Source: a phage
Reading direction: 5' to 3' (one strand)
Sequence record: OZ077758.1
Length of the DNA: 44,664 nt
The translations under genes and the position numbers were made by a program. The notes below the pieces were generated by a model. The model did not search any database. It saw only the letters and a program-made list of their open reading frames with translations, and had not been told where the DNA came from. This document shows positions 1,949-37,096 of the stretch, one piece after another; position 1 is the stretch's first letter, and the number at the start of each line of letters is the position of its first letter.

Positions 1949-3469
1949 ATGACCGTTAACGTTGACAACCAGCACCCACTATATGCGCGCATCGCGCCAG
2001 AGTGGAAGATGATCCGCGATTGTGTAGCAGGGGAGCGCGCAGTGAAGGCGTGCGGCCCCTTGTACCTGCCTCATCCCGCCAGTGGCGACAATACTGACCC
2101 GAAAGCACGGGCGCGGTATAAGGCGTACAAGCAACGCGCTGTATTCCTGAACGCCACCGCCCGCACACTTAACGCGCTGTTAGGCGTTGCCTTTGCTAAA
2201 CCGGTAAGTCTGGACCTTTCCGGGGCGATGGCTGACCTGATTGACGACGTAGACGGCAGCGGTATGCCTCTGCCGCAACTCCTGCGCGGTGCTATGTCGG
2301 AAGTGCTGCAATCAGGCCGTGCGGGCTTTATGGTGGACTACGACCGCCAGGCGCATTTTGATGAACTGGGTAACGTAGTACCGCAGACCGCCGCTGAAAT
2401 GGCAGCACACCGCCCGCTTATCCGCCTGTATACGGCTGAACAGATCATTAACTGGCGGCAGACCCACGGCGTCGACACGCTGATTGTGCTGAAGGAAACG
2501 GACGAAATCAGCACCGAAGACCCGGACGACTTCGCAAACCACGAGGTAACCATCTGGACCGAGCTTCGCATGATTGACGGCAAGGCACACGCCCGACGCT
2601 GGTTTTACAATGCGGACACGTCAGAAGTGCAAATGGACTTGCCGCGTGGATTTACCCGCACCGACCTTGTGCCGCTGGTGGATGCTGCCGGTAAAGCGCT
2701 GACACAGCTTCCGTTTTGCTGGTGTGGCGCGGTGGACAACAACGCAACGCCTGACGCCGCTCCGCTGGCGGATATCGCATCCATCAACATTAAGCACTAC
2801 AACGCCGAAGCGGACGTCGCCGAGATTGCGCACATCGTGGGTCAACCGACCCTGGTGGCGACGGGCTTGACTCAATCATGGGCGGACAAGAACCTGAAGG
2901 GCGGCATTGCCCTCGGCGCGACTAAGGGCGTTATCCTGGGCCAGAATATGGATGCTAAACTGATCCAGGCGGAGGAGCGCAACTTGTCGGTTGCACTGTG
3001 TGAGCGTCGCGAATTGCAAATGGCTAAACTGGGCGCGGCCCTGGTCGAGAAGGGGACCGCACCTAAGACGGCAACCGAGGCGGCATACGATGCGCAGACT
3101 GATAACAGTATCCTGTCGCTTATTGCCGGTAACGTTGAGAAGGCGTTCAACCGTGCGCTGCAAATCGTGCAGCTTTTCACTGGTGACACCGCCGACCAGC
3201 GTGTGACGCTGAACAAGTTCTACACCGAAATCACGGTTGACGCACAGCTTATGACCGCGATGATGGCAGGTGTGCAGACCGGTACGGTCCGTCTGGCGGA
3301 CTTTATCAAGTGGATGATGGCCCAGGGCGTTATTGATGACTCGCAAACCGTCGAGCAGGTGGAAGACGAACTGCGAAATCAGAATCCATTGCCTCAAATG
3401 TCCCCGGATGCGGTAGAATCGACCGAAGAAGCCCCGGACGAGGTAGTGGACAATGGCGAAGACAATTAA
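1949..3469 (+). CDS. portal protein
   Basis: 506 aa, directly after terL, acidic C-terminal tail; RBS AAGGAAAA before ATG at 1949. Confidence 0.8.
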   Translation: MTVNVDNQHPLYARIAPEWKMIRDCVAGERAVKACGPLYLPHPASGDNTDPKARARYKAYKQRAVFLNATARTLNALLGVAFAKPVSLDLSGAMADLIDDVDGSGMPLPQLLRGAMSEVLQSGRAGFMVDYDRQAHFDELGNVVPQTAAEMAAHRPLIRLYTAEQIINWRQTHGVDTLIVLKETDEISTEDPDDFANHEVTIWTELRMIDGKAHARRWFYNADTSEVQMDLPRGFTRTDLVPLVDAAGKALTQLPFCWCGAVDNNATPDAAPLADIASINIKHYNAEADVAEIAHIVGQPTLVATGLTQSWADKNLKGGIALGATKGVILGQNMDAKLIQAEERNLSVALCERRELQMAKLGAALVEKGTAPKTATEAAYDAQTDNSILSLIAGNVEKAFNRALQIVQLFTGDTADQRVTLNKFYTEITVDAQLMTAMMAGVQTGTVRLADFIKWMMAQGVIDDSQTVEQVEDELRNQNPLPQMSPDAVESTEEAPDEVVDNGEDN

Positions 3470-4556
3470 TCAATATATGGCGGATCGAATGATTCGCCGT
3501 CACATCTTCACCCAGCGCCTGAGTAATGACCAGGCGCGGAGGGTGTTGGCTATGTGGGAGAAGTTCCGGCCCACGTTACTGGGTAAGCTGACCGAGTTGC
3601 TTGATGGTAAAAAGTCCATGAGCAACAAGGCGCTTACCACCCTGTTAACGCAACTCGACAAGACCGTCAAAACGGAACTGCGCACCGAGTTTAAGGTGCT
3701 GGCTGAAAGCCTTCAGGAGTTCGCCGACACCGAGGCCGATTATCTCGCCGACACATTAACGGCAGCGATCCAGCCGGTGGTCGCCGTACCAGCGGTCGAG
3801 GTGGTTGGCGTAGTGACCGGTGCGCAGATCGCAGCGACGGCAATGAAAAACCCGTTCCAGGGTAATACGATGATGCAATGGCCTGACTCACTTTCTGAGT
3901 GGACCAGGACGCAGATCGGCAATCAGGTGCGCGCCGGATTCATCCAGGGCAAGCCAACGATGGAAATTATCGCGGACGTGAGGCGCGCGCTAGGCGGTCG
4001 TAGTGCGCAAGCCATCTCAAGCGTTGTTAAGTCCGCAGTCAACCACTATGCGGCGACCGCCCGCGAACTAATGGTAAAAGCAAATGACGATATTCTCGAA
4101 GGTCGCCAATGGTTATCTACATTGGACACGCATACTTCTCCCATGTGCCAGCTACGCGATCGCCTGTTTTATCCGGTTGATGTTACTCCCGATACGAAAG
4201 GGAAGCGAGGCGGAAAAGTGGTGGCGGGATCACAATATGGCGCTGGTCCGGGCAAGCTACATTATTGCTGCCGCTCGACGGAGACGTGGAAAGTCAAAGG
4301 TATGGAAGATTGGCCCAGTGGTAAGCGTCCGGCACTGAAGGCCGACGCAGGCAGATTGCTGAGTGAGCAGGTCGACGCGCAGACGGATTTCTTCTCATGG
4401 GTGCAGCGCCAGCCGCGCCATATCCTGGAGGAATTATATGGAGTGCAACGCGCCGACCAGATTATGCGCGGCGTGAAAGTGCCGAAGATGTTCACCGATT
4501 CCGGCGAACTAATGACTATCGCGCAGCTTAAAAACCGGGGGTTATGGCGTGATTAA
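3453..4556 (+). CDS. head morphogenesis protein (Mu F-like / SPP1 gp7-like)
   Basis: 367 aa, overlaps portal stop, position portal-F-scaffold-capsid typical of SPP1-like head modules. Confidence 0.6.
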   Translation: MAKTINQYMADRMIRRHIFTQRLSNDQARRVLAMWEKFRPTLLGKLTELLDGKKSMSNKALTTLLTQLDKTVKTELRTEFKVLAESLQEFADTEADYLADTLTAAIQPVVAVPAVEVVGVVTGAQIAATAMKNPFQGNTMMQWPDSLSEWTRTQIGNQVRAGFIQGKPTMEIIADVRRALGGRSAQAISSVVKSAVNHYAATARELMVKANDDILEGRQWLSTLDTHTSPMCQLRDRLFYPVDVTPDTKGKRGGKVVAGSQYGAGPGKLHYCCRSTETWKVKGMEDWPSGKRPALKADAGRLLSEQVDAQTDFFSWVQRQPRHILEELYGVQRADQIMRGVKVPKMFTDSGELMTIAQLKNRGLWRD

Positions 4557-5004: not shown

Positions 5005-5769
5005 TTAGCGCGGAATACCGCAAATCTCGTTGAGAGTTTTCACATCCAGCGCCACCGCCGTGGATTTTGGCTTGTCCGGGTAAGGGATGAATTGCTCAAC
5101 TTCAGGCCATGCCTTAATCAGCTTCTTGTCAGTATTGTGCAGGTCCAGCACACCGGTAACGGTCAACTTGAACGCGTCATACTTAGCCCGCAATTCGCGG
5201 CGGGCATGATCGTTACGGTCCAGGCGCTTACAGAAGTCATGATCCGCAGGGTAGTCTATACGACCGCGTGGCTTATAGATCGGCAGCGATTTTCCGTCCT
5301 CGTCCACTTCACACACCGAAGCCAGCATAACTTCCTCGAACCCCGGTACGATATCGCCGAGATCGGGAGATAGCTTATTCATGTATTTATATTCCCAGTA
5401 TCCGCGATGTACGCGGTATTGGTGACCGTCACCGCTCAAGGACAAGGTGCGAACGTTTCCGCCTGCATTTATTTCGAAAGTGGCGTCGTAAACGCTGCCG
5501 ATGCCTTTCGGGCGGTCGGTGTTATAACTATACGTCGCCTTGTTGGTGTATACACAGACGCCGTACATCTGCGACGGGTCATCGCCGATTGCTTCAATGC
5601 GCGCGAGTAGCTCGGCGAACGTGCGAATGCCTTCTGGCATACAGTCCAGCGTAATGGCGTACGCCAGGTCGCGCGAGTCCATCATTATTGATTTTGCTTC
5701 TGTCGCGATTTCGTGGTCGCGCAGGATGTTAGCCAGAATCTGATTTTTAATGTCTTTAGTCAGTCTCAT
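5005..5769 (-). CDS. hypothetical protein, counter-oriented moron in capsid module
   Basis: 254 aa from ATG at 5769..5767 (MRLTKDIK...), RBS GAGGA; the longer track ORF to 6216 overlaps the scaffold gene and promoter and is rejected; no recognisable catalytic motif. Confidence 0.7.
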   Translation of the reverse strand: MRLTKDIKNQILANILRDHEIATEAKSIMMDSRDLAYAITLDCMPEGIRTFAELLARIEAIGDDPSQMYGVCVYTNKATYSYNTDRPKGIGSVYDATFEINAGGNVRTLSLSGDGHQYRVHRGYWEYKYMNKLSPDLGDIVPGFEEVMLASVCEVDEDGKSLPIYKPRGRIDYPADHDFCKRLDRNDHARRELRAKYDAFKLTVTGVLDLHNTDKKLIKAWPEVEQFIPYPDKPKSTAVALDVKTLNEICGIPR

Positions 5770-5798
5770 TTTTGTGTCCTCGTTGTTGGTGTGCAACC

Positions 5799-5827
5799 AA
5801 TATATGCAACCAATACGAGGATTGCAA
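5799..5827 (-). promoter_or_regulatory. sigma70-like promoter for the minus-strand moron
   Basis: minus strand reads TTGCAA - 17 bp (TCCTCGTATTGGTTGCA) - TATATT about 30 nt upstream of ATG; two direct copies of GCAACCAAT at 5793..5801 and 5806..5814. Confidence 0.45.
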
Positions 5828-5917
5828 GTGAATTTTGCGATTATTTTTATCGCTGATAATATTAGAAGCGTGAAGTCGAGCGGGTGGCCCGCTCTGCCAC
5901 AATCCCAGGGGGATAGC

Positions 5918-21927: not shown

Positions 21928-23841
21928 ATGGCAGCGGGTACACTATCCGTAACGAATAACAGCAAGGCGGTTGTCGGGGTCGGCACAACGTTTACGGCGT
22001 TTAAAGCGGGCGACTTCTTAACGCTGGTGGTGGGTCAAGTCCCCTACACCGTAGCGATCGCGTCCGTTGAAAGTGCAACCGCGCTAACGCTGGTGCTGCC
22101 GTTCGACGGCCCTACGGCAACCGGCCTAGCGTGGGATGGCGTTAAGCGCGACACCATGTCGCTGGCGACGATGGGCGTAACCGTCCAGGCACAGAAAGCG
22201 TTGCGCTTGATGATCGCAGATGAAAACAACTGGCGTGCAATCTTCGGCGACGCTGAAGAAATCACAGTGACGTTACCTAACGGGCAAGTTATGCAGGGCA
22301 TGTCGTGGGGCTATTTGTCCTCCTTGCTGAAGGAAGTAGACCCCGTTGAGATGCGCAACCTTCAACAACAGGCCGAGACGGCGAAAAACCAAGCTGTTAC
22401 CGCTAAGGGGCAGGCAGAATCGGCGCGCGACGCAGCTAATACGGCGAAGACTGGGGCGGAGACGGCACGCGACGCCGCTAATACTGCGAAGACCGACGCG
22501 CAGACCGCAAAAGGCCAGGCCGAATCCGCACGCGACGCCGCTAATACTGCGAAGACCGGAGCAGAGAACGCTCGCAACCAGGCGCAAGGCTACCGTGATG
22601 AGGCGGAAGGTTTTAAAAACCAGATTAACCCTGCACTATTCGTGCAGAAGTCCCAAAACCTGAATGACGTTGCCGATAAAGCTGAGGCGCGCGCTAACTT
22701 GCAAGTTTTATTTGCGTCAAACTCTAACCTGGGGGCTACCGACCTCAACACGCTCAACAGCACGAAGGAAGGGCGTTATTACCAGACCACATCGGTGAAC
22801 GCTACACCAGAGCGTAACTACCCGTTTCAGGAAGCCGGTTGTCTTACCGTGTTTAAAACCGGCGGGGGTAGTGTGGAGGCTTGCATCCAGGAGTACACCA
22901 CGTTTTCAAGCCTGCGTCGGTTCGTCCGTTCGCTCGCTGGGGCGGTGTGGACGGAGTGGAAGGAGATCTACCTGCAAGGGTCGTCCCCAACATACGAAAA
23001 TATCGACTCGACAGGACGAGTTAGATCTGAAAAGGCATATCCAGCGTTCGAGTGGGTGTCGACGAGAGTAGCCGACGATTTCATCGGTAAGCGAGTCAGC
23101 ATTGAGAACGACACAGGCGTTAATATGTATATGTTCTTCATGCAGAAAGACACAACCGCAAACAGACGTGTCGTAGCGTTCGCAAGGCCAAACTCTACTG
23201 TTTTCCACTTCGTAGGGTATAACGGCGGGCTACCTACCGACGGCAACAGTGCGCCGTCAAATACCATCAACTTTAACACGCAACCGCAAGGCTGGCGTCT
23301 GGTGTCCGGCGGCTGGCAAAATGCACCGCTAGCCGGTAACAATTACGGGACACTATTCACGCAATGTATGCAGGGTGTCGCGCAAGGGGATTCGAAAGAC
23401 AACGGTACATCTGGCTTGTGGTATTCACAGCGATATTTTAATACCGAGTCTAGGGTGTTCATCCGAAATCAAACAAACAACGCCGCCTGGACTGGCTGGT
23501 ACGAGCTTACTAAAACAGCAGTATCGGATGAACGCCTGAAGAATGTAAAAGGTAATTTGAATGTTGAAGGTGCGCTCGATAACATCAACCGCATGGAATT
23601 TAAAATATTCTCGTTTAAGGATGAGAAGGCCGGTAAGGGGTATCGTCGCGGTGTTATCTCGCAGCAGATTCGCCAGATCGATAAAGAGTACACGAAGGAG
23701 ATCGGCGGGTACTATCACCTCGACCAGACACCAATGCTACTGGACGCCCTAGCGGCAATTAAGGCGTTGCGTGCGCGTGACGAGGCTAATAAAGCAGAGA
23801 TTGCAGAACTGAAGGCGGCTATTGCCGAATTGAAGAAATAA
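21928..23841 (+). CDS. tail fibre with C-terminal intramolecular chaperone (peptidase S74) domain
   Basis: 637 aa; tandem 20-residue repeats (ARDAANTAKTGAE...) encoded by nucleotide repeats around 22380..22600; C-terminal SDERLKNV motif and coiled-coil tail characteristic of the self-cleaving chaperone domain. Confidence 0.8.
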   Translation: MAAGTLSVTNNSKAVVGVGTTFTAFKAGDFLTLVVGQVPYTVAIASVESATALTLVLPFDGPTATGLAWDGVKRDTMSLATMGVTVQAQKALRLMIADENNWRAIFGDAEEITVTLPNGQVMQGMSWGYLSSLLKEVDPVEMRNLQQQAETAKNQAVTAKGQAESARDAANTAKTGAETARDAANTAKTDAQTAKGQAESARDAANTAKTGAENARNQAQGYRDEAEGFKNQINPALFVQKSQNLNDVADKAEARANLQVLFASNSNLGATDLNTLNSTKEGRYYQTTSVNATPERNYPFQEAGCLTVFKTGGGSVEACIQEYTTFSSLRRFVRSLAGAVWTEWKEIYLQGSSPTYENIDSTGRVRSEKAYPAFEWVSTRVADDFIGKRVSIENDTGVNMYMFFMQKDTTANRRVVAFARPNSTVFHFVGYNGGLPTDGNSAPSNTINFNTQPQGWRLVSGGWQNAPLAGNNYGTLFTQCMQGVAQGDSKDNGTSGLWYSQRYFNTESRVFIRNQTNNAAWTGWYELTKTAVSDERLKNVKGNLNVEGALDNINRMEFKIFSFKDEKAGKGYRRGVISQQIRQIDKEYTKEIGGYYHLDQTPMLLDALAAIKALRARDEANKAEIAELKAAIAELKK

Positions 23842-23847
23842 ATAGAA

Positions 23848-23870
23848 GGGGCCGTATGGCCCCTTTTTTA
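23848..23870. terminator. bidirectional terminator after tail fibre gene
   Basis: GGGGCCGTATGGCCCC followed by TTTTTT; same hairpin family as 4981..5003. Confidence 0.7.
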
Positions 23871-24443
23871 GTTTGAGTTTTCCCAGTCCATTTTGCGCCG
23901 CACTAGCGGGCTTTCGTAATACTCCTTCCCATCCACTTCCACTAAGGGCCAGTCATTAACAATGACGTAAGGCTCTGCGATATCCTCGATCACGCCGTGC
24001 GCACTATGTTGCCCGAAATCTACGCCCACCAGGATAACCCCGGCAACGCGACGAGTGAGATACTCGCGAGCGCAACGCGCCTCTACCAGTCCGCGACGTA
24101 TGCCACTGGTGGCCTTAACCTCGTAGGTCCAGACGGCATCGATCACATGTTCGCGGAAGTCGGGGCCGGATTTAACCTTGCGCTTGCCAACCATGATAAT
24201 ATCGCCGCGGTCGATAGTGTTAGCGCTAAACAGGCCGGTACGCATTAGCAAACCTTGCGGGATACAGCTACGCCCGCCCGCCTGCCCTTCGAGGTACATG
24301 CCCGCAAACATTTCGCCCAGCACACCGACGAGTCTGCTTTGCTTGCACGCGTCGGACTTATACCGCCACTGGTCAAACTCGATGCTTGCGATCATTGCCG
24401 CCAGGTGGAATTGTTTACCTGATATTTCATATTCGCCGTACAT
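23868..24443 (-). CDS. hypothetical protein (weak PD-(D/E)xK-like pattern)
   Basis: 191 aa, RBS GGGGGA; possible D...EVK motif (GDIIMV ... YEVKA); last gene of leftward block. Confidence 0.5.
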   Translation of the reverse strand: MYGEYEISGKQFHLAAMIASIEFDQWRYKSDACKQSRLVGVLGEMFAGMYLEGQAGGRSCIPQGLLMRTGLFSANTIDRGDIIMVGKRKVKSGPDFREHVIDAVWTYEVKATSGIRRGLVEARCAREYLTRRVAGVILVGVDFGQHSAHGVIEDIAEPYVIVNDWPLVEVDGKEYYESPLVRRKMDWENSN

Positions 24444-24485
24444 TGTGAATCCCCCATTGCCGCGGGCCGAAGCCCGCGATTAGTT

Positions 24486-24995
24486 TTATTTCAGCGCGCT
24501 ACGTACCAGTGTTTTTTCCATGTTGCGGAAGTCTTCCGGCGTCATGAGGATTTTGGACCCGTCTTCGCCGGTGAGCACGACCATAGGCTGGACTTCTTGG
24601 GCCGCAATGCCGAAATTAGCGGCTTTAACCGTTTTACCGGGGGTAAATGCGTCGCCTGTTTTGACGGGCCAACCTTTGAGGCTATCGAATTGTGCTGCCG
24701 TTGTATCGATCTGAATCTCGTCATGCACGGTCATGTAAGACTCGCCCAGCAGGGCGGCATACGCCACCAGGTCCACGATGTTATCTTCCTGGTGCTTACG
24801 GGTCTGGCGCACCAGCTTCAGGCAGATCAGGAAGGTCCAGGCTTCTTGCTCGGTAAGGTCGCGCCCGGTAAGCGCGTTAAACACGGCGGCGGTCTGTTTA
24901 GCGCTGCGTTCTTCTTTCGCGTTGTCATAGCCGTTTTCTTTCCCGCGCTGTTCCATAGTGGTGGCGGCGTTTTTGCAGTATTCGTATGCTTTCAT
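24486..24995 (-). CDS. hypothetical protein (conserved phage alpha-helical family, function unknown)
   Basis: 169 aa from ATG 24995..24993 with RBS AAGGAAAA; the longer track ORF to 25121 is rejected. Confidence 0.55.
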   Translation of the reverse strand: MKAYEYCKNAATTMEQRGKENGYDNAKEERSAKQTAAVFNALTGRDLTEQEAWTFLICLKLVRQTRKHQEDNIVDLVAYAALLGESYMTVHDEIQIDTTAAQFDSLKGWPVKTGDAFTPGKTVKAANFGIAAQEVQPMVVLTGEDGSKILMTPEDFRNMEKTLVRSALK

Positions 24996-25047
24996 TATGT
25001 TTTCCTTTTTAGTGGGGGAGGTATGGCCCCCAACGTGATTAAGATAC

Positions 25048-25069
25048 TGCAACCAACCTATTGGTTGCA
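25048..25069. promoter_or_regulatory. perfect palindromic operator TGCAACCAA-N4-TTGGTTGCA
   Basis: inverted repeat of the TTGGTTGCA motif, overlapping the 3' end of the HAD gene and upstream of gene 24486..24995; adjacent TTGCAAGTGAATTTTGC 17-mer also found at 5822..5838. Confidence 0.55.
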
Positions 25070-25528
25070 AGTGAATTTTGCAACGTTTATCGCATAAATC
25101 TTCGGGACTAGATCGCCGCACGCCCGACGAATTGCCGCGATGTTCTTCGGACAGTCTTCAATGATGACCAGTTCCGACACGTCCGCATAGCAGACCATTT
25201 TGAACACGGCGCACGCCTTAAACTCTGGTGGCGGGGTGTCGTCCAGCATGTGGCGCATAAACAACCGGCCTACCGGGAAGATCTCCAATTGCTCGGCGGT
25301 GGTGTCCCAACATTCTCGCTGCCGGTTGGTCAGATACGCGATCTCGAAGCCTCGCTCTTTGTACATGCGCAGCAACGGCAGCATATCCATATTCAGGTCT
25401 TCGCGTACGTGCGCCTTGTGCCACTTCGCCCAAAAGGTGGATTTAGTTTTTATACCAGGCACCAGGTCGGCGCGCGCATCGCTTGAGCCATTAATAACGC
25501 CATCCAAATCGCAAATCAGTAATTTCAT
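25058..25528 (-). CDS. HAD-superfamily hydrolase (possible nucleotidase/phosphatase)
   Basis: 156 aa; HAD motif I LLICDLDGVI at N-terminus. Confidence 0.5.
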   Translation of the reverse strand: MKLLICDLDGVINGSSDARADLVPGIKTKSTFWAKWHKAHVREDLNMDMLPLLRMYKERGFEIAYLTNRQRECWDTTAEQLEIFPVGRLFMRHMLDDTPPPEFKACAVFKMVCYADVSELVIIEDCPKNIAAIRRACGDLVPKIYAINVAKFTCNQ

Positions 25529-25749
25529 TTTAAGCTCTCAATAAGGGTTTGTCGGGCGCTGCGCGCGGTGTAGGAGTTGCACACGAAATGGCAACGTCGG
25601 GTAATGACAAGCCACCCGGTAAGGTCCATGCCCAAGATGTGTTCAGGCCGTGACACGCGACGCACACGATCGCGGCGCGGGTCGATGTTATAGTCTTTTT
25701 GCATTTGGTCTACGACCGCGTGGTCGCGGTCAACGATTAAGATATTCAT
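25525..25749 (-). CDS. hypothetical protein
   Basis: about 74 aa from internal ATG; overlaps neighbours, weak RBS. Confidence 0.3.
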   Translation of the reverse strand: MNILIVDRDHAVVDQMQKDYNIDPRRDRVRRVSRPEHILGMDLTGWLVITRRCHFVCNSYTARSARQTLIESLK

Positions 25750-26215
25750 GTAGCTCACTCTCGCTCATTATTTCAATTTGTGCGCTGCCGATGGGCGGCG
25801 CTTCGTCAAAGATTATCAACTGCTGGCACTTGTTATTGCTAGGCCCGACTTCGCCGGTGACGGCGTGTATAAATCTAATCCGCCAGTCCAGAAGAATTAT
25901 CAGGTTTGCAGTCTTCCTGGCCAGCTTCGCCCACTTCGTCGACGTGTCCTGATTCAGTAGCATGACCGTCCGGCGTCCGTGCGCTGCGCACTCTACCCAC
26001 GGCAGTGGATCGGAGTACGGCGGATTGCACCACTTCCACCCTTTCAACTCGGACCAGTCCACATCAAGCGCGCTGTGTTCTGCAGTGAAGTAACGCGGTA
26101 GCAGGTGGTTTGCATCGCTTGCCGCCATATCGTAACGGAATCGGTACTTCCGGCGCAGCGGTTTAAATAAAGCTGGCGGCGTGCGCCAGCTATCTTTTTG
26201 CTCACTCTTCTGCAT
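25730..26215 (-). CDS. DNA N6-adenine methyltransferase (phage Dam-like)
   Basis: 161 aa; catalytic NPPY motif (WCNPPYS) and N-terminal WRTPP..LF region typical of small phage Dam methyltransferases. Confidence 0.7.
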   Translation of the reverse strand: MQKSEQKDSWRTPPALFKPLRRKYRFRYDMAASDANHLLPRYFTAEHSALDVDWSELKGWKWCNPPYSDPLPWVECAAHGRRTVMLLNQDTSTKWAKLARKTANLIILLDWRIRFIHAVTGEVGPSNNKCQQLIIFDEAPPIGSAQIEIMSESELHEYLNR

Positions 26216-26660
26216 GGTCGGTGTCTATCGCATAAAGTGGAACCTTGCCTCCTTTACCAATGACGCGTTGCATGCGCTTTAAATCCTCGACACTAAGCGC
26301 TTTCGGGGAGATGCTGCCGTTTGTAGGGTTGCGCCACGCCATAAGCACAAGGTCTTTCCGGGCGATCGAAGACTGGCGGCCCTTCGGACGCACGTACTCC
26401 TCCGCACGTTTGCAATGCTCGCGCAGACCTTCGGCAGTGATGCGGTTTAGCGCGACGGTGGTGGTGTATCCGGTGCGCTGCATAATACCCATCAACTCAT
26501 ACAGCAGGTCGAAGCGCTCCTCTAATTCCTTGCGCGCCTTCTCCTCGCCTTCATAGCTCGCCAGGTAGGTGTCCGCCAGCGCGTTCGCGCGTTCGGCCTG
26601 TTCGCGGGCTTCGAGGCATTGCGCGGCCCAGTAATTTTTTTCTTCTTGTAAAATTTTCAT
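26202..26660 (-). CDS. hypothetical protein (coiled-coil)
   Basis: 152 aa, charged helical N-terminal half. Confidence 0.5.
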   Translation of the reverse strand: MKILQEEKNYWAAQCLEAREQAERANALADTYLASYEGEEKARKELEERFDLLYELMGIMQRTGYTTTVALNRITAEGLREHCKRAEEYVRPKGRQSSIARKDLVLMAWRNPTNGSISPKALSVEDLKRMQRVIGKGGKVPLYAIDTDHAEE

Positions 26661-26903
26661 CTATTTAGTCTCCGTAGTGCGGATTTCATCGCGTGGAATA
26701 AATTTGCCGTCCATCTCTACCCAGCAGACACCATAGCGCCATTGGGTGTTGCGACCTGTTTGCTCCGCGTACACAGTCCGGCATTCGTAGCGTTCCGAGT
26801 AGTAGACACCCGCGGCAGGTACGCAAACACAAACGGCAATCATGAGGGTGAGGAGCACCCAAAACCGAAGGTCGCCGTCGTAGTCGAAAAATAATGATTT
26901 CAT
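26661..26903 (-). CDS. small membrane protein
   Basis: 80 aa; hydrophobic helix WVLLTLMIAVCVCVPAAGVYY; RBS GGAGA. Confidence 0.5.
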   Translation of the reverse strand: MKSLFFDYDGDLRFWVLLTLMIAVCVCVPAAGVYYSERYECRTVYAEQTGRNTQWRYGVCWVEMDGKFIPRDEIRTTETK

Positions 26904-26920
26904 ATCACTGTCTCCGGGTA

Positions 26921-26948
26921 TTAAAAAGGGCGTCCAAACCGGACACCC
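26921..26948 (-). terminator. rho-independent terminator (minus strand) at operon boundary
   Basis: minus strand GGGUGUCC-GGUUU-GGACGCCC hairpin followed by TTTTTAAT; sits just downstream of the promoter -10. Confidence 0.55.
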
Positions 26949-26950
26949 TC

Positions 26951-26979
26951 AATATAATGCAACCAATATGGTTATGCAA
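26951..26979 (-). promoter_or_regulatory. sigma70-like promoter
   Basis: minus strand TTGCAT - 17 bp - TATATT; two direct ATTGGTTGCAT copies (one supplies the -35, one abuts the -10). Confidence 0.5.
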
Positions 26980-26984
26980 CCAAT

Positions 26985-27308
26985 TTACGAATAAAAATTT
27001 GGGTCGCGCGCAACGTCTACCAGATACAGGTTACTAATGCGGTTGCCGTAATGGCCTGGCGTGCGTTGACGGCACACTACGGCATAGCCTGGAGGGATTG
27101 TATTGCCAGTCTCAATAATCCACGCCACGCGTGCGCCGGATAGCGTCTTGCCGTTGCATTCGATACGAGTACCGCCATCGGCAGTGTTAAGGTTGCCGAT
27201 CTTGCAGCCTGTGGACTTCAGGCGAATGACGCCGGTCTTGCTGTCGTAGGAAAAAAGCTGATTGGTCATTGCCACTGAAAAGTCGATGGCTTCAAATGTA
27301 GTATTCAT
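26985..27308 (-). CDS. HNH_3/NUMOD4-like protein with degenerate catalytic residues
   Basis: 107 aa; pattern LSGARVAW..GNTIPPGYAV...GHYGNRISNLYLV resembles HNH_3 homing-endonuclease fold but the canonical first His is replaced; start overlaps methyltransferase stop (ATGA). Confidence 0.45.
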   Translation of the reverse strand: MNTTFEAIDFSVAMTNQLFSYDSKTGVIRLKSTGCKIGNLNTADGGTRIECNGKTLSGARVAWIIETGNTIPPGYAVVCRQRTPGHYGNRISNLYLVDVARDPNFYS

Positions 27309-29892: not shown

Positions 29893-29921
29893 AATATACC
29901 GCTACGCGACCAATTCAGCAA
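29893..29921 (-). promoter_or_regulatory. sigma70-like internal promoter
   Basis: minus strand TTGCTG - 17 bp - TATATT with ATTGGTTGC at the -35; lies inside the 3' end of the VRR-NUC gene. Confidence 0.4.
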
Positions 29922-30180
29922 CCAATAAATCACAGTCGGCTATGTTGTCGATAACGCGAACGTCCGCACCGCGGCGGGCCATCCGCTCATGTTCTCGTAC
30001 CTGGTGCGGCTTCGGTTTGCCTCCGGGGCGCTTCACTTCGACGAAAACTATTCTGCCGTTGATGATGATGATCAGATCTGGCGCACCTGCGCGCCCCTCC
30101 CAAGCCACTTTGCGGCAGAATCCGCCTACCGCTTTCACCCGTCGCATCAGGTGACTTTGAATCTTGCCCTCTGGTGTCAT
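29902..30180 (-). CDS. VRR-NUC domain nuclease
   Basis: 92 aa from ATG 30180 overlapping polymerase stop; motifs GAPDLIII and VFVEVKRPGGK..Q. Confidence 0.7.
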   Translation of the reverse strand: MTPEGKIQSHLMRRVKAVGGFCRKVAWEGRAGAPDLIIIINGRIVFVEVKRPGGKPKPHQVREHERMARRGADVRVIDNIADCDLLVAELVA

Positions 30181-32471
30181 TATTTCCTGTACCTGTACAT
30201 AATGTCGCCTTCCGCGGCAAGCGGGAAGCCTTTCGCCCAAATAGGCAGGTTGCACATCAGCGCGCACAATTCCTCGGTAGTGTAGTCGTCGGTATCCGGC
30301 ACTTCGGTTATCAGTTCATCGTGTACGGACAGTACGATCTCATACCCCGCAGCTTCAACGCCCGGCATGGACCATGCGAGGATATCGCGGCACAGCGCCT
30401 GCACGATGTTTTCCGTGAGTTTGCCGCCGTAGGTGTACTGGAAGCCCCACTGGCGGGTCGTCTGATTCTCGCCCTGATATTTAATGCGGGTGCTGGTGCG
30501 TTTCTTGCCAGTATCTTCGTCGATCTCGGTAGTGACAGACAGCGCGATGCCCGGATAACTCATAATACGCCCTGAAGGCAACTCAATTTTCAACCACCAC
30601 CCCGCGGCGTTCGGGTCGTCGCGTTCCTCGTCGAAGGTTGGGTCATGCTTCGCCTTCGTGCGGACTATCTTGAGCGCTTTCTTACCATCCGGGCGAACGT
30701 TCGCGCCAGCCCAGTACGCTTTGCCAGGATTGCGGATTGCACACAACACCGCGTCCTCAAGCTCGGCCCAAAAGGCTACCGTCTTCGGGTGCGCCTCTCG
30801 CCACATGCGTTTAATCGCATCACACGTAAGCCATACGTTTTTCGGCAGTATGTAAGTCGGGCGCTCGTCCTTCTTGCCAGGCTTCGGCGGTCGCTTCGCT
30901 TCGTTAATGCGGGCGTACTCATAACCCCGTTTAGCCGCTGCCCAAATGTGATCGGGGAATGTGCCCTTCATGACGTCCGCCATCGCGTAAAGGTCGAGGC
31001 CCAGGTTTTTAGCGAACTGCAAGAACGCAGCCACGCCGCCGCCATAGCCAAGTCCCAACTCACACGCCTTACCAATCTGGCGTAGGTCTTTGCGGTTGGC
31101 TTTAATGTATTCCGGGTCGAGGCCAAACATCTTACCGGCAGTTTCACAATAGATATCGCGACCCGCCCTAAACACCATTAGCGCGGTTTTCTCACCAGCG
31201 ATCCAGGCAAGCCCGCGACCTTCCACGTTAGAATAGTCAGCTACAACAAACTTCTTGCCCTTAGCCGGGATAATGCACCCGCGAACGGTCGAGGCCGTTA
31301 ACTTCGATATGTCATACGCCCAGTGCGCTGTCCCGCGTAACAGGGAGTTGATGCCGTTGGTGAGCATGTGCGACCGGACCCAAAAAGAAACGTCGCTCTC
31401 GCCATCACGGCGCTTAATCTTCCCTTCGTGGTCGTCGCTATACTCGCCGCGCGCCAGGTTTTGCGGCTGGAAGCCTTTGCCCGCCCAGCGTAGCGTGCGT
31501 TTCGCCCCACCATACTGGAGACACCCACGACGGCGACCATCTGCAGATAAGCCATTAACGAGCGGATTGTACTTAGTCGATGCCGTTGATGATGCACCGA
31601 GGCGCATCTCGATAAGCACTTTGCCCTCGTCGGGGAAGTCCGGGTCTTCCAGCAGGTCGTTAAGCGTGGATTTCTGCGCGTTGTGTATTGTGAACGCAGG
31701 CGCGAGGTCGCGCAGCGCTGGCAGGAAGTCATTGCCTGTCAGCTTACCGCCGAAGCGCTCCCATGCTTCTTCCTTCAATTCTTCCTTATGCGCCTGCACC
31801 GCTTTGATCGCGGCGTTCGCCAGGTCAACGTCAACGTAGAAGCCGCGGTCGTTAATCAACTGGTCGATGAGCAGGATTTCATCTTCCTTCGGTGAGTTGC
31901 CCCAGTCCGGTATGCGCCAGTAGACTTCACGCATGGCAACAATATCCAGCGCGGCATAGCGCAGAAATTTGGCCCATTCTTCCGGGTGAGTCTCGCGAGT
32001 GTAGCGGCGTATTTTGTAGGTCTTAGGGGTAGGCTTACAGAATCGTTTAATCAGCGCCTTGCCTGCCTTATCCTTCGCGTGCTCTGCGTCAACGCCCAGC
32101 ACCTGGCACTGCATATCGAGGCTACCGGGCAGCGCGTGGCGAAAGGCCATAATCATGGTGTCTTCGATCTGGCTTACCGGAAGGTCAATACCCCACTTCT
32201 CGCGAATAACCAGGCGGTCAAACAGGAGGCCGTTAGCCATCACTATTTTTGCTTTCTTGCGGGAAACACGGCGGAGCGCCTTGCGCAGTTCACGCGGCAT
32301 TGTTGGGGATTCAGTGGCGTCCCATGTCTGCACGCGGCCCTCGTCGATGGCGTAGGTGCAAATCATAATCTCGGTTGATGGGTGTTCTGCGTAGGCGTAA
32401 GCGCCTACTTTCTTCAGGTCCACCCCGCTAAATGTCTCGGTATCGAGAAACAGGCGTTCGAAGTCTTTCAT
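30180..32471 (-). CDS. DNA polymerase I (family A) with 3'-5' exonuclease domain
   Basis: 763 aa; Exo I DTETFSG, motif A DYSNVEGR, motif B RQIGKACELGLGYGGG, motif C SVHDELI. Confidence 0.9.
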   Translation of the reverse strand: MKDFERLFLDTETFSGVDLKKVGAYAYAEHPSTEIMICTYAIDEGRVQTWDATESPTMPRELRKALRRVSRKKAKIVMANGLLFDRLVIREKWGIDLPVSQIEDTMIMAFRHALPGSLDMQCQVLGVDAEHAKDKAGKALIKRFCKPTPKTYKIRRYTRETHPEEWAKFLRYAALDIVAMREVYWRIPDWGNSPKEDEILLIDQLINDRGFYVDVDLANAAIKAVQAHKEELKEEAWERFGGKLTGNDFLPALRDLAPAFTIHNAQKSTLNDLLEDPDFPDEGKVLIEMRLGASSTASTKYNPLVNGLSADGRRRGCLQYGGAKRTLRWAGKGFQPQNLARGEYSDDHEGKIKRRDGESDVSFWVRSHMLTNGINSLLRGTAHWAYDISKLTASTVRGCIIPAKGKKFVVADYSNVEGRGLAWIAGEKTALMVFRAGRDIYCETAGKMFGLDPEYIKANRKDLRQIGKACELGLGYGGGVAAFLQFAKNLGLDLYAMADVMKGTFPDHIWAAAKRGYEYARINEAKRPPKPGKKDERPTYILPKNVWLTCDAIKRMWREAHPKTVAFWAELEDAVLCAIRNPGKAYWAGANVRPDGKKALKIVRTKAKHDPTFDEERDDPNAAGWWLKIELPSGRIMSYPGIALSVTTEIDEDTGKKRTSTRIKYQGENQTTRQWGFQYTYGGKLTENIVQALCRDILAWSMPGVEAAGYEIVLSVHDELITEVPDTDDYTTEELCALMCNLPIWAKGFPLAAEGDIMYRYRK

Positions 32472-35850: not shown

Positions 35851-36363
35851 TTAATCTTCCAGTTCGAAATAGGTTTCGACGATTTCTTTTAGCTCTGTGT
35901 GGAAGTCTTCGACGTCGTCATCTTCCAGCTTGGCGATTGATTTGATCTCGAACGATTCCAGCAGGTCGTCGAATTCGTCGTTCGCATCGTCGTCATCGCC
36001 ACCGGCGATAATAGCGGCATACTGTTTGATTTCGTCGCGCATCTCCGCCAGCGGATCGGCATCTTTCTTACCTTTGCCTTTCGCCGGTGCTTTCTTAGCC
36101 TTAGCCGGTTTTTCGTCTTCGGCGTCTTCGTCGTCGTCATCTTCTACGACTTCTTTTTTGGCCTTACCTTTCGCCGGTGCTTTTTTAGTTTTCGCCGGTG
36201 CTTCGTCTTCGGCGTCGTCATCTTCTACGACTTCTTTTTTGGCCTTAGACGGCTTCTTGTCTTCCTGCTTACCAACGGCAGCGCCAACGGTTTCATAATG
36301 TTTAGCGATGGTTTCCAGTGCTACTACGCCGCGAGTGATCAGGTTTACGATTTGCTCAAACAT
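35851..36363 (-). CDS. acidic repeat protein, first gene of leftward early operon
   Basis: 170 aa from ATG 36363 (RBS GGAGA); two tandem ~23-aa repeats (KKEVVEDDD.EDE.PAK.KKAPAKGK) from a ~69-bp nucleotide repeat; poly-Asp C-terminal half. Confidence 0.6.
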   Translation of the reverse strand: MFEQIVNLITRGVVALETIAKHYETVGAAVGKQEDKKPSKAKKEVVEDDDAEDEAPAKTKKAPAKGKAKKEVVEDDDDEDAEDEKPAKAKKAPAKGKGKKDADPLAEMRDEIKQYAAIIAGGDDDDANDEFDDLLESFEIKSIAKLEDDDVEDFHTELKEIVETYFELED

Positions 36364-36559
36364 GGTACATCTCCGATTGGTTAAGTTTAGGTGTCGGCAG
36401 TTAACTTCGTCGGTGGCCTTAACATATTGCCAGGTTACGCGTTCTCCCGTTCGGGTAGTGGACCTGGTTATATAATCACGGTTGGGAATCCTGACACTTC
36501 GATCCGGCCCCTGCGTTGCCCCTCTCCAGTTTGCGTCCTGCATCCTGTCGACGGAGTGA

Positions 36560-36766: not shown

Positions 36767-37096
36767 ATGAATGTAAACGACGCAATCGAAATGTTAACGA
36801 AGACTGTTTGCAGTGAGACAAGCCGGTCATGGGCATACACCGATGCCGTGGGGGCTGTGTTATTTGAAATCGAACGACTGCGGCTTACCGAAAAAGAATT
36901 GCGCGCCAGGCTGGAACTACTCAACGGTACAGCAGCAAGCAAGCTGCAAAAACACAATGAAGAAATGGAAGAATACAAAAAGCAGGTTATCCGTTTGCGC
37001 GCCGAGGGTAAATCATGGGCGATGATTGCCGAGTTGACCGGAATTAATCAGAGCACAGTGCGCTCCTGGGTACGCAATAATAAAACTTCTAAGTAA
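36767..37096 (+). CDS. helix-turn-helix DNA-binding protein (putative regulator)
   Basis: 109 aa; C-terminal HTH-like KSWAMIAELTGINQSTVRSWVRNN; first gene of rightward early operon. Confidence 0.6.
   Translation: MNVNDAIEMLTKTVCSETSRSWAYTDAVGAVLFEIERLRLTEKELRARLELLNGTAASKLQKHNEEMEEYKKQVIRLRAEGKSWAMIAELTGINQSTVRSWVRNNKTSK

Follow-up and report, generated by a model that had tools for sequence, protein, structure and literature searches.

The gene pair and its setting

The phage DNA of sequence record OZ077758.1 (44,664 nucleotides; this whole stretch is called the window below) closes its leftward arm with two genes, here named gpA and gpB, which stand behind a palindromic, promoter-like element and in front of a terminator shared with the tail-fibre gene. 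The genes and the element that ends them are the following.

24486..24995, minus strand: gpA, 169 amino acids, with DUF6378 at about residues 1-90, a variable, indel-rich linker at about 91-137 and a conserved tail at 138-169
23868..24443, minus strand: gpB, 191 amino acids, a predicted PD-(D/E)xK-fold nuclease of a small unclassified family, with E44, D81, E108 and K110 as catalytic candidates
23844..23867, no strand assigned: bidirectional intrinsic terminator common to the gene pair and the convergent tail-fibre gene, which ends at 23841

An earlier sequence-only reading of this DNA had described two terminal leftward open reading frames (ORFs) of 169 and 191 amino acids. Both sizes stand, as do the other sequence features described there, and the two are the last genes before the convergent tail-fibre gene. 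A 211-residue reading of gpA from a GTG at 25121 was rejected: it overlaps the upstream HAD phosphatase gene and the promoter, and the relatives start at an ATG or GTG aligned with 24995.

The genome map follows the plan of the genus Dhillonvirus: the rightward structural genes end with the tail-fibre gene (21928-23841), the early/DNA-metabolism arm reads leftward from about 36.6 kb down to 23868, and a further rightward block holds a helicase-primase gene, small genes and the lysis genes. The 3-kb region around the gene pair matched 161 phage records, nearly all of them Escherichia or Shigella Dhillonvirus. The nearest relatives of the window are EC115, Over9000 and TheodorHerzl/Bas14, and since the best identity is 92.5%, the window is, by nucleotide identity, a new species-level member of this well-sampled genus of E. 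coli phages.

At least 80% of the cassette lies at the same position in 155 of the 159 matching phage records, and the cassette was found in 16 further IMG/VR contigs. In the more distant relatives L009, L010, L011 and L028, whose gpB proteins are 55-57% identical to that of the window, the pair keeps its position, with an extra small gene between the HAD and DUF6378 genes. In L028 the gpA and gpB genes overlap (ATGA start/stop) where the others have a hairpin, which argues for co-expression of the two. The GC content of gpA plus gpB is 0.555, the same as the genome mean. Against its relatives, gpB has a ratio of nonsynonymous to synonymous substitution rates (dN/dS) of 0.04, equally low as that of the adjoining HAD phosphatase, and the ratio for gpA is 0.12-0.14. 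Given the fixed position, the occurrence in distant relatives, the normal composition and the strong purifying selection, we place the pair in the core gene set of the Dhillonvirus-like group and not among mobile or accessory elements; the earlier suggestion of an accessory cassette is not supported.

gpB as a predicted PD-(D/E)xK nuclease

gpB had no match in Pfam, NCBIfam, PADLOC or the PDB sequences, and in PHROGs it falls into family 10558, for which the listed function is unknown. The family is narrow and confined to phages: a word-indexed search of 5.8 billion proteins returned 7 clusters, and when 1.84 billion cluster representatives were searched exhaustively with an HMMER profile, the number was 15. 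A single gpB cluster at 90% identity holds 492 member sequences.

An AlphaFold2 model built from 7 sequences (predicted local distance difference test score, pLDDT, 83; predicted template modelling score, pTM, 0.81) has its elements in the order alpha-beta-beta-beta-alpha-beta, including, as assigned by DSSP, a helix at residues 34-54 and strands at 81-87 and 101-112. Four residues are invariant in an alignment of 16 sequences that extends down to 22% identity, and all four fall within these elements: E44 in the helix, D81 at the opening of the first of the two strands, and E108 and K110 as an E108-x-K110 motif in the second. The modelled protein thereby combines the restriction-endonuclease-like core fold with the conserved catalytic Asp, (D/E)-x-K and Glu set of the PD-(D/E)xK enzymes. 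Foldseek comparisons with viral models brought up a large number of uncharacterised phage proteins that equal gpB in size, along with two named restriction endonuclease. The best structural match of gpB was I-Ssp6803I.

The closest known enzymes are PD-(D/E)xK nucleases, such as I-Ssp6803I, archaeal Hjc, SSV D212 and the type II enzymes NhoI and DpnI, from which gpB differs in having no sequence-level membership in the Pfam, NCBIfam, PADLOC or PDB families and in carrying extra N-terminal helices and a C-terminal beta/alpha extension. The fold and the conserved residues lead us to predict that gpB is catalytically active, as a metal-dependent nuclease of a PD-(D/E)xK family not yet classified. 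The sequence-only reading had noted a weak PD-(D/E)xK-like pattern in the second protein, and the fold and the residues invariant in 16 sequences both confirm and strengthen that observation. gpB would be the third nuclease of this superfamily in the genome, because a VRR-NUC domain protein (29902-30267, minus strand; Pfam, 1e-05), encoded just downstream of the DNA polymerase gene, and a 530-residue RecB/Cas4-like exonuclease are also present.

The gpB homologues at 22-36% identity are all in phage genomes, where they lie within or at the end of replication/modification modules. In 5 of 7 lineages, a DNA methyltransferase is encoded in the vicinity, if the 260-residue PHROG-1008 methyltransferase of L030 is included. 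The homologues of L033 and L034 are each overlapped by a small gene for a Cro/C1-type helix-turn-helix (HTH) protein. For three more distant homologues, the contigs were too short to give a context.

gpA and its DUF6378 domain

Residues 16-85 of gpA match Pfam DUF6378 (PF19905) with 36.1 bits, against a gathering score of 27.1, and the full-length protein matches PHROG 9871. DUF6378 was matched in 19 of 19 aligned gpA homologues, in which relaxed Pfam scans returned nothing else. The alignments give a conserved four-helix N-terminal domain, an indel-variable linker and a conserved tail of about 30 residues that is predicted to be beta-beta-alpha. Across diverse phages, the domain keeps R17, D24, E29, R30, K60, R63, D71, D75, Y79 and E85, and the charged residues in this set look like a putative binding or catalytic site for a charged ligand. 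The invariant charged residues of the N-terminal domain are the same in homologues from N4-like and other phages. DUF6378 proteins belong to PHROG 9871, 474 and 1167, and gpA differs from them in its hypervariable linker and in a 30-residue tail that only the Dhillonvirus-like group has.

Elsewhere among phages, genes with DUF6378 occur in replication/nucleotide-metabolism modules, next to genes for dCTP deaminase, thymidylate synthase (ThyA/ThyX), MazG, NrdD, DNA polymerase and a RecB-like nuclease. DUF6378 adjoins the gpB homologue in L033 and is 1.7 kb from it in L032; it stands directly beside gpB solely in the Dhillonvirus-like group and L033. A kinship of gpA with Nmad1 or with the MazG-like all-alpha NTP pyrophosphatases, which have an EExxE...ExxD metal-binding signature, is a conjecture prompted by the motif pattern. 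Comparison of gpA with a phage MazG-like protein by hhalign gave a probability of 0.4%; the four helices and the invariant D24, E29, D71, D75, E85, R17, R30, K60 and R63 are MazG-compatible and not diagnostic. The phage-annotation labels "phosphofructokinase" and "nucleotide modification associated protein" that are attached to DUF6378 are unverified, the former being without support here. In the searchable literature we found nothing functional on DUF6378 and no study of gpA or gpB, and the Dhillonvirus proteomics paper was uninformative about both.

The gpA linker (about residues 91-137) is a modular indel hotspot among Dhillonvirus proteins that are otherwise 90-95% identical, and the homologues range from 130 to 199 residues; one of the indels is a 27-residue block (DLSVRLDGEINAYNSAMRVAEG...). 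Such indels could reflect a neutral, flexible linker or diversifying selection.

A phage-wide 9-mer at the predicted gpA promoter

Upstream of gpA, the following elements were delineated; all exact copies of the motif that they contain are listed with them.

25078..25084, minus strand: GTTGCAA upstream element, which pairs with the TTGCAAC in the distal copy of the motif as an inverted repeat of 7 nt and belongs to the block GCAAAATTCACTTGCAA, also present at the Nmad5 promoter
25065..25070, minus strand: TTGCAA, which by its sequence is the predicted -35 hexamer and lies within the distal copy of the motif
25048..25069, no strand assigned: perfect 9+4+9 palindrome made of two copies of a phage-wide 9-mer (TGCAACCAA / TTGGTTGCA)
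25041..25046, minus strand: predicted -10 hexamer TATCTT, 1 nt past the proximal motif copy; TATAGT or TATATT in relatives
5792, 5805, 21903, 25048, 25061, 26958, 26975, 36568, 39922, 39953, 40485 and 43197: copies of the 9-mer (TGCAACCAA/TTGGTTGCA)

The palindrome, TGCAACCAA-TAGG-TTGGTTGCA, has its arms at 25048-25056 and 25061-25069, and the TAG stop codon of the upstream HAD phosphatase gene (25058-25060) lies inside its loop. On the minus strand the order is GTTGCAA-AATTCAC-TTGCAACCAA-TAGG-TTGGTTGCA-G-TATCTT, then 7 nt, a leader hairpin, an AGGA ribosome-binding site and the ATG. Read in this way, the palindrome fills the -35 and the spacer of a predicted sigma-70-like gpA promoter, which has an 18-nt spacer and matches the consensus at 8 of 12 positions here and at 9 of 12 in most relatives.

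The 9-mer TGCAACCAA occurs in 12 exact copies in the window, as opposed to 0.38 expected from shuffles, and 0 of 100 shuffles reached 12. By our own reading, about 11 of the 12 copies fall in intergenic, promoter-like regions, of which there are about eight, and they are arranged as direct pairs spaced 13, 17 or 31 nt apart, as singles and as one inverted pair. The palindrome is thus the sole perfect inverted pair, as had been pointed out earlier, the ten other exact copies being single or in direct pairs. It folds with -12.4 kcal/mol (z = -3.2), and of 25 distinct leader variants, 20 retain it.

The inverted pair is present in most variants of the gpA promoter, but L021 has two direct copies of TGCAACCAA and L009, L010 and L028 have two direct copies of TTGGTTGCA. 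The two-fold symmetry that would mark the operator of a dimeric repressor is therefore not kept at the orthologous site, and because relatives carry direct repeats at the same promoter, the conserved unit is the 9-mer and not the palindrome. With its extended consensus (t)A-TTGGTTGCA, the conserved 9-mer fits a putative site for a factor that tolerates either orientation.

The geometry of TTGGTTGCA, 0-1 nt and a -10-like hexamer is repeated in L009 and, within the window, at 26.9 kb and before Nmad5 at 5.8 kb. One inverted 9-mer copy sits in the spacer of the strong early promoter at 36.5 kb (TTGACA-18-TATTAT), and at 43.2 kb a copy directly follows the -35. The sites are positionally conserved in three complete genomes, and their positions are the same in TheodorHerzl and SM_S22. 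The motif is present in the relatives with 55-57% identity and absent from other gpB-bearing phages, and the searchable literature gave no description of it, only primer matches.

One candidate for the binder of the (A)TTGGTTGCA motif is a 109-residue protein with a C-terminal HTH (HTH_23/sigma-70 region-4-like). Its gene (36767-37096, plus strand) heads the rightward early block beside the divergent promoter region, and in one relative the protein is annotated as "transposase". In L016 and L026, the palindrome loop is flipped (CCTA, not TAGG), with the result that the HAD stop codon is lost and the HAD protein extends through the promoter and leader.

Leader, intercistronic hairpin and terminator

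Two further structures accompany the cassette.

25013..25032, minus strand: leader stem-loop U-GGGGG / CCCCC-A with a loop of 8 nt, located on the predicted transcription start or immediately behind it
24461..24478, no strand assigned: intercistronic hairpin with a 7-bp GC stem and a UUCG loop (CGCGGGC-TTCG-GCCCGCG)

The GGGGG..CCCCC leader hairpin noticed in the sequence-only reading is real (-10.5 kcal/mol) and was found in 21 of 21 distinct leader variants of relatives (-8.5 to -18.5 kcal/mol), but taken alone it is no better than shuffles (z = -1.5 to -0.9). Covariation is weak, with one compensatory pair in RNAalifold, and support for the element comes from its persistence in divergent relatives more than from covariation. 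Conservation of the loop (CAATAC) extends to the distant L033 and hints at a function that depends on its sequence, beyond that of a passive 5' stabiliser. A stem-loop in the 5' untranslated region of ompA is a known example of the 5'-terminal structures that stabilise mRNAs of bacteria and phages. Here too, a GC-rich hairpin lies a few nucleotides from the predicted start in every relative; unlike a simple stabiliser, it has a conserved loop as well, and its start is predicted from sequence. A search of IMG/VR with the leader element returned 4 matches, about the number expected by chance, of which solely the Dhillonvirus match is meaningful.

The intercistronic hairpin (-16.1 kcal/mol, z = -3.3) is nearly invariant in relatives, including L009 and L010, and is replaced by the ATGA overlap in L028. 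It had been placed at 24459..24474; the structure is there, with coordinates that differ by 2-4 nt. As an intrinsic terminator it fails, the sense strand continuing as GCAAUGGGGG with no U-tract and the T-rich tail lying on the antisense (plus) strand only. Possibly, it could serve in mRNA stabilisation or processing, or act as a back-stop to late antisense transcription from the tail-fibre gene. Rfam had no family match over 23600-27200, with only two sub-threshold matches at chance level.

Dedicated or shared regulation

The gpA upstream region has a relative elsewhere in the same genome.

5776..5850, minus strand: paralogous promoter region before the Nmad5 gene, GCGATAAA..GCAAAATTCACTTGCAA-N8-TTGGTTGCA-TATATT

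The two upstream regions align over about 60 nt and have in common GCGATAAA..GCAAAATTCACTTGCAA-N8-TTGGTTGCA-TAT(A/C)TT, a paralogy kept in TheodorHerzl and SM_S22, which suggests that Nmad5 may be co-regulated with the cassette. The Nmad5 gene (5005-5775, minus strand; Pfam Nmad5, 1.8e-57) is a lone leftward gene inside the rightward structural block. Its start differs between published records (172, 256 or 334 residues), and the Pfam match supports the 256-residue start.

A second comparison is offered by L033, where gpB is 35% identical. Between 4300 and 6700 of this genome, an intrinsic terminator is followed by TTTGCAACCAG-17 nt-TATATT and a leader hairpin (GGGAGGCAATACCGCCACCC), after which come a 305-residue gene, DUF6378, the Cro/C1-type HTH gene and the gpB homologue; further upstream are Nmad5, an N6/N4 methyltransferase and a HAD phosphatase. 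The L033 leader (GGGAGGCAATACCGCC) is almost identical to several Dhillonvirus leaders. This 27-nt non-coding leader is far better conserved than the L033 proteins (35-45% identity).

The paralogy with the Nmad5 promoter and the terminator-promoter-leader arrangement of L033 support a dedicated, conserved transcription start. In the window, no terminator lies between the HAD gene and the cassette. Moreover, in the metagenomic variant L023 (IMGVR_UViG_3300045988_003101) a natural deletion fuses the Dam gene in frame to gpA (2910-3956, 348-residue ORF). Ksap1 and the HAD gene are lost with it, as are the palindrome promoter and the leader, and both cassette genes remain intact. Since L023 keeps the pair without promoter and leader, the private promoter appears dispensable and read-through sufficient for expression. 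The regulation is not special to the cassette either, given that the 9-mer occurs at about eight promoter-like regions and the gpA promoter is paralogous to that of Nmad5. In other words, the proposal that the pair is regulated separately from the replication operon survives in part: a dedicated start is plausible in view of the promoter-like element, the conserved leader and the L033 unit, but the shared 9-mer, the Nmad5 paralogue, the missing HAD terminator and the L023 deletion speak against a regulation of its own. The L023 deletion could in addition represent a wild Avs2-escape genotype.

Proposed role of the gene pair

We consider, with a probability of about 0.6, that the pair forms a conserved distal transcription unit of the leftward early/DNA-metabolism arm and encodes a phage DNA-handling nuclease with a DUF6378 partner. 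Transcription would start at a weak sigma-70-type promoter (TTGCAA, 18 nt, TATCTT), the -35 and spacer of which are filled by two 9-mers, and the unit would consist, in order, of promoter, 5' stem-loop leader, gpA, UUCG hairpin, gpB and bidirectional terminator. A DNA-binding factor, probably phage-encoded, may bind the 9-mers and time the gpA promoter together with the Nmad5 promoter and about six other promoter-like regions, and read-through from upstream genes would also supply cassette transcripts. gpB would then act on DNA as a Mg2+-dependent endonuclease.

Within this reading, the likeliest single role for gpB is to attack, in the manner of a restriction enzyme, the DNA of the host or any other DNA that lacks protection, a plausible but unproven assignment that we make tentatively. 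In this scheme, the upstream Dam-like and Dcm-like methyltransferases would shield the phage DNA, and gpA and the upstream HAD phosphatase would handle the nucleotides that result. This role is ranked first because the homologues lie near methyltransferases, because HTH genes overlap some of them, and because the phage has VRR-NUC and RecB-like nucleases of its own. Ranked slightly below it is a role in processing phage replication or recombination intermediates, itself a possibility somewhat on the doubtful side; a strict anti-defence function comes next, and a homing endonuclease last.

Several observations weigh against the view of the pair as a nuclease unit with a dedicated promoter. The gpA promoter of the window, with its 8 of 12 consensus positions, is below the threshold of the promoter scan. 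DUF6378 was not found near the gpB homologue in four other lineages (3-6 kb of flank on each side), and as it is near gpB in some lineages and absent from the flanks in these four, gpA and gpB are associated and not obligately linked. The gpA structure model is poor (pLDDT 49.5), which makes a fold search on that model meaningless, and neither PDB profile searches, which were empty or spurious, nor hhalign linked gpA to any characterised enzyme family. The co-occurrence with methyltransferases is suggestive at most, since methyltransferases are common in phage replication modules. Furthermore, the DNA of E. coli hosts carries Dam and Dcm methylation of its own, so that host and phage DNA could not simply be told apart in this way if the phage enzymes have those specificities.

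Conceivably, the cassette is the effector end of a co-regulated phage system that discriminates DNA by its modification, an extension that we regard as improbable. gpB would here destroy DNA that lacks the phage modification, timed by the 9-mer regulon to follow the methyltransferases; the duplicated promoter would provide co-regulation with Nmad5, DUF6378 and the HAD phosphatase would act on released or modified nucleotides, and an undescribed timing circuit of the phage would include both the orientation-tolerant 9-mer and the leader hairpin with its conserved sequence.

Equally improbable in our estimate is that gpB, with or without gpA, serves strictly in conflict, as an anti-defence or inter-phage competition factor that destroys, for example, host defence nucleic acid or the DNA of a co-infecting phage, and has no part in the phage's own DNA metabolism or in host-DNA recycling. 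The neighbourhood invites this idea, with a Ksap1 homologue (25525-25749), an inferred anti-Tmn gene (26202-26660) and two methyltransferases close by, and so do the strikingly indel-polymorphic gpA linker, the narrow, phage-restricted gpB family and the restriction-like contexts of its homologues. However, gpA, gpB and the HAD protein had no PADLOC match at E <= 1, and few proteins here are as strongly conserved as gpB (dN/dS, 0.04; 492-member cluster), unlike typical arms-race proteins. All members of the genus also have the pair, whereas anti-Tmn and Ksap1 are variable or deletable (PMC11846954, PMC11564622). A structure-specific endonuclease that acts before packaging, such as a Holliday-junction resolvase or debranching enzyme comparable to Hjc or T7 endonuclease I, is a somewhat better candidate but still an unlikely one: the genome already has the VRR-NUC nuclease, in L035 a RusA resolvase gene lies one small gene upstream of the gpB homologue, and the 191-residue gpB has N- and C-terminal extensions that are not found in the 120-residue Hjc proteins.

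The structural match to I-Ssp6803I could also be taken to mean that gpB is a free-standing homing endonuclease and the cassette selfish DNA. This we consider very improbable, because the gene keeps one position in practically every genome of the genus and in distant relatives as well, with no presence/absence polymorphism seen, and because purifying selection is strong and the composition normal. As to the palindrome, its main function might be that of an RNA or DNA hairpin, for instance the 3' end or a partial terminator of the HAD-phosphatase transcript. The stable fold, the overlap with the HAD stop codon and a terminator-like listing on the plus strand are in line with this, but the sense strand has no U-tract, the direct copies in L021, L009, L010 and L028 cannot form this hairpin, and single or direct 9-mers stand at other promoter-like regions; we therefore give this explanation little credence compared with a binding site at a promoter.

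Comparison with known systems

Some viral nucleases degrade host DNA while modification protects the viral genome, as in the chlorella-virus restriction-modification enzymes and in T4, where endonucleases II and IV act in the presence of hydroxymethylcytosine-containing phage DNA. Likewise, the window combines a nuclease, two methyltransferases and nucleotide-handling genes (HAD, DUF6378) in one arm. The likeness has its limits: gpB has no methyltransferase gene as its neighbour, the Dam-like and Dcm-like ones being encoded on the same strand 1.3 and 2.9 kb upstream, Dhillonviruses are not known to degrade host DNA, and T4 EndoII has a GIY-YIG fold, unlike gpB.

In restriction-modification operons under the control of a C protein, a palindromic C-box lies upstream of the C and R genes. 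Here too, a nuclease gene stands behind a predicted promoter of its own with a palindromic site, downstream of methyltransferase genes, and the Cro/C1-type HTH gene that overlaps the gpB homologue in L033 and L034 resembles the controller arrangement. In contrast, the cassette of the window contains no HTH gene and thus no C-protein gene, and its motif belongs to a genome-wide set of about 12 sites and is no private C-box; nor is the palindromic symmetry conserved in relatives.

gpB can be described as a new small family within a type of enzyme that is already known, its partner as the bearer of a widespread domain, and the promoter/operator network as undescribed yet conventional-looking; in other respects this is an ordinary core pair of phage DNA-handling genes. 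Dhillonviruses are common coliphages that are used in phage-therapy engineering and as models for the Avs2 and Tmn defences, and both of these universally conserved genes are still annotated as hypothetical. The assignment of gpB, with named residues, provides a testable function, and the 9-mer set gives a first map of the possible organisation of transcription in this phage group, including the Nmad5 and cassette promoters. If gpB were sensitive to modification, this would explain the two methyltransferases and would matter for the engineering and rebooting of phage genomes.

Neighbouring genes and minor observations

Between the Dam-like methyltransferase and the HAD phosphatase lies a 74-residue ORF (25525-25749, minus strand) that is 86% identical to Ksap1 of SECphi18, the activator, or trigger, of the KpAvs2 defence (PMC11564622). 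A 152-residue coiled-coil protein (26202-26660, minus strand) is 88% identical to SM_S22 CDS0035, and we infer from the numbering and the described architecture that it is the anti-Tmn ORF35 of PMC11846954; it is widely labelled "DNA ligase" and looks misannotated. The possibility that one of the cassette genes is itself Ksap1 or anti-Tmn was discarded, as both map to these upstream neighbours. The mutation by which these phages escape Tmn lies in Nmad5, the cloned form of which is reported to be toxic (PMC11846954).

At 26905-26945 (minus strand), two direct 9-mers and a TATATT precede an 80-residue gene and are followed by an 8-bp hairpin with a T-run (GGGTGTCC-GGTTT-GGACGCCC-TTTTT). Since the predicted start lies in the 5' arm, incoming transcripts would form the terminator and locally started ones would not.

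An early ORF at 35851-36543 (minus strand) encodes a highly acidic protein with a tandem duplication (KKEVVEDDD...KKAPAKGK), and the duplicated DNA (repeats at 36133-36150 and 36214-36231) gives identical hairpin-like matches in the terminator scan.

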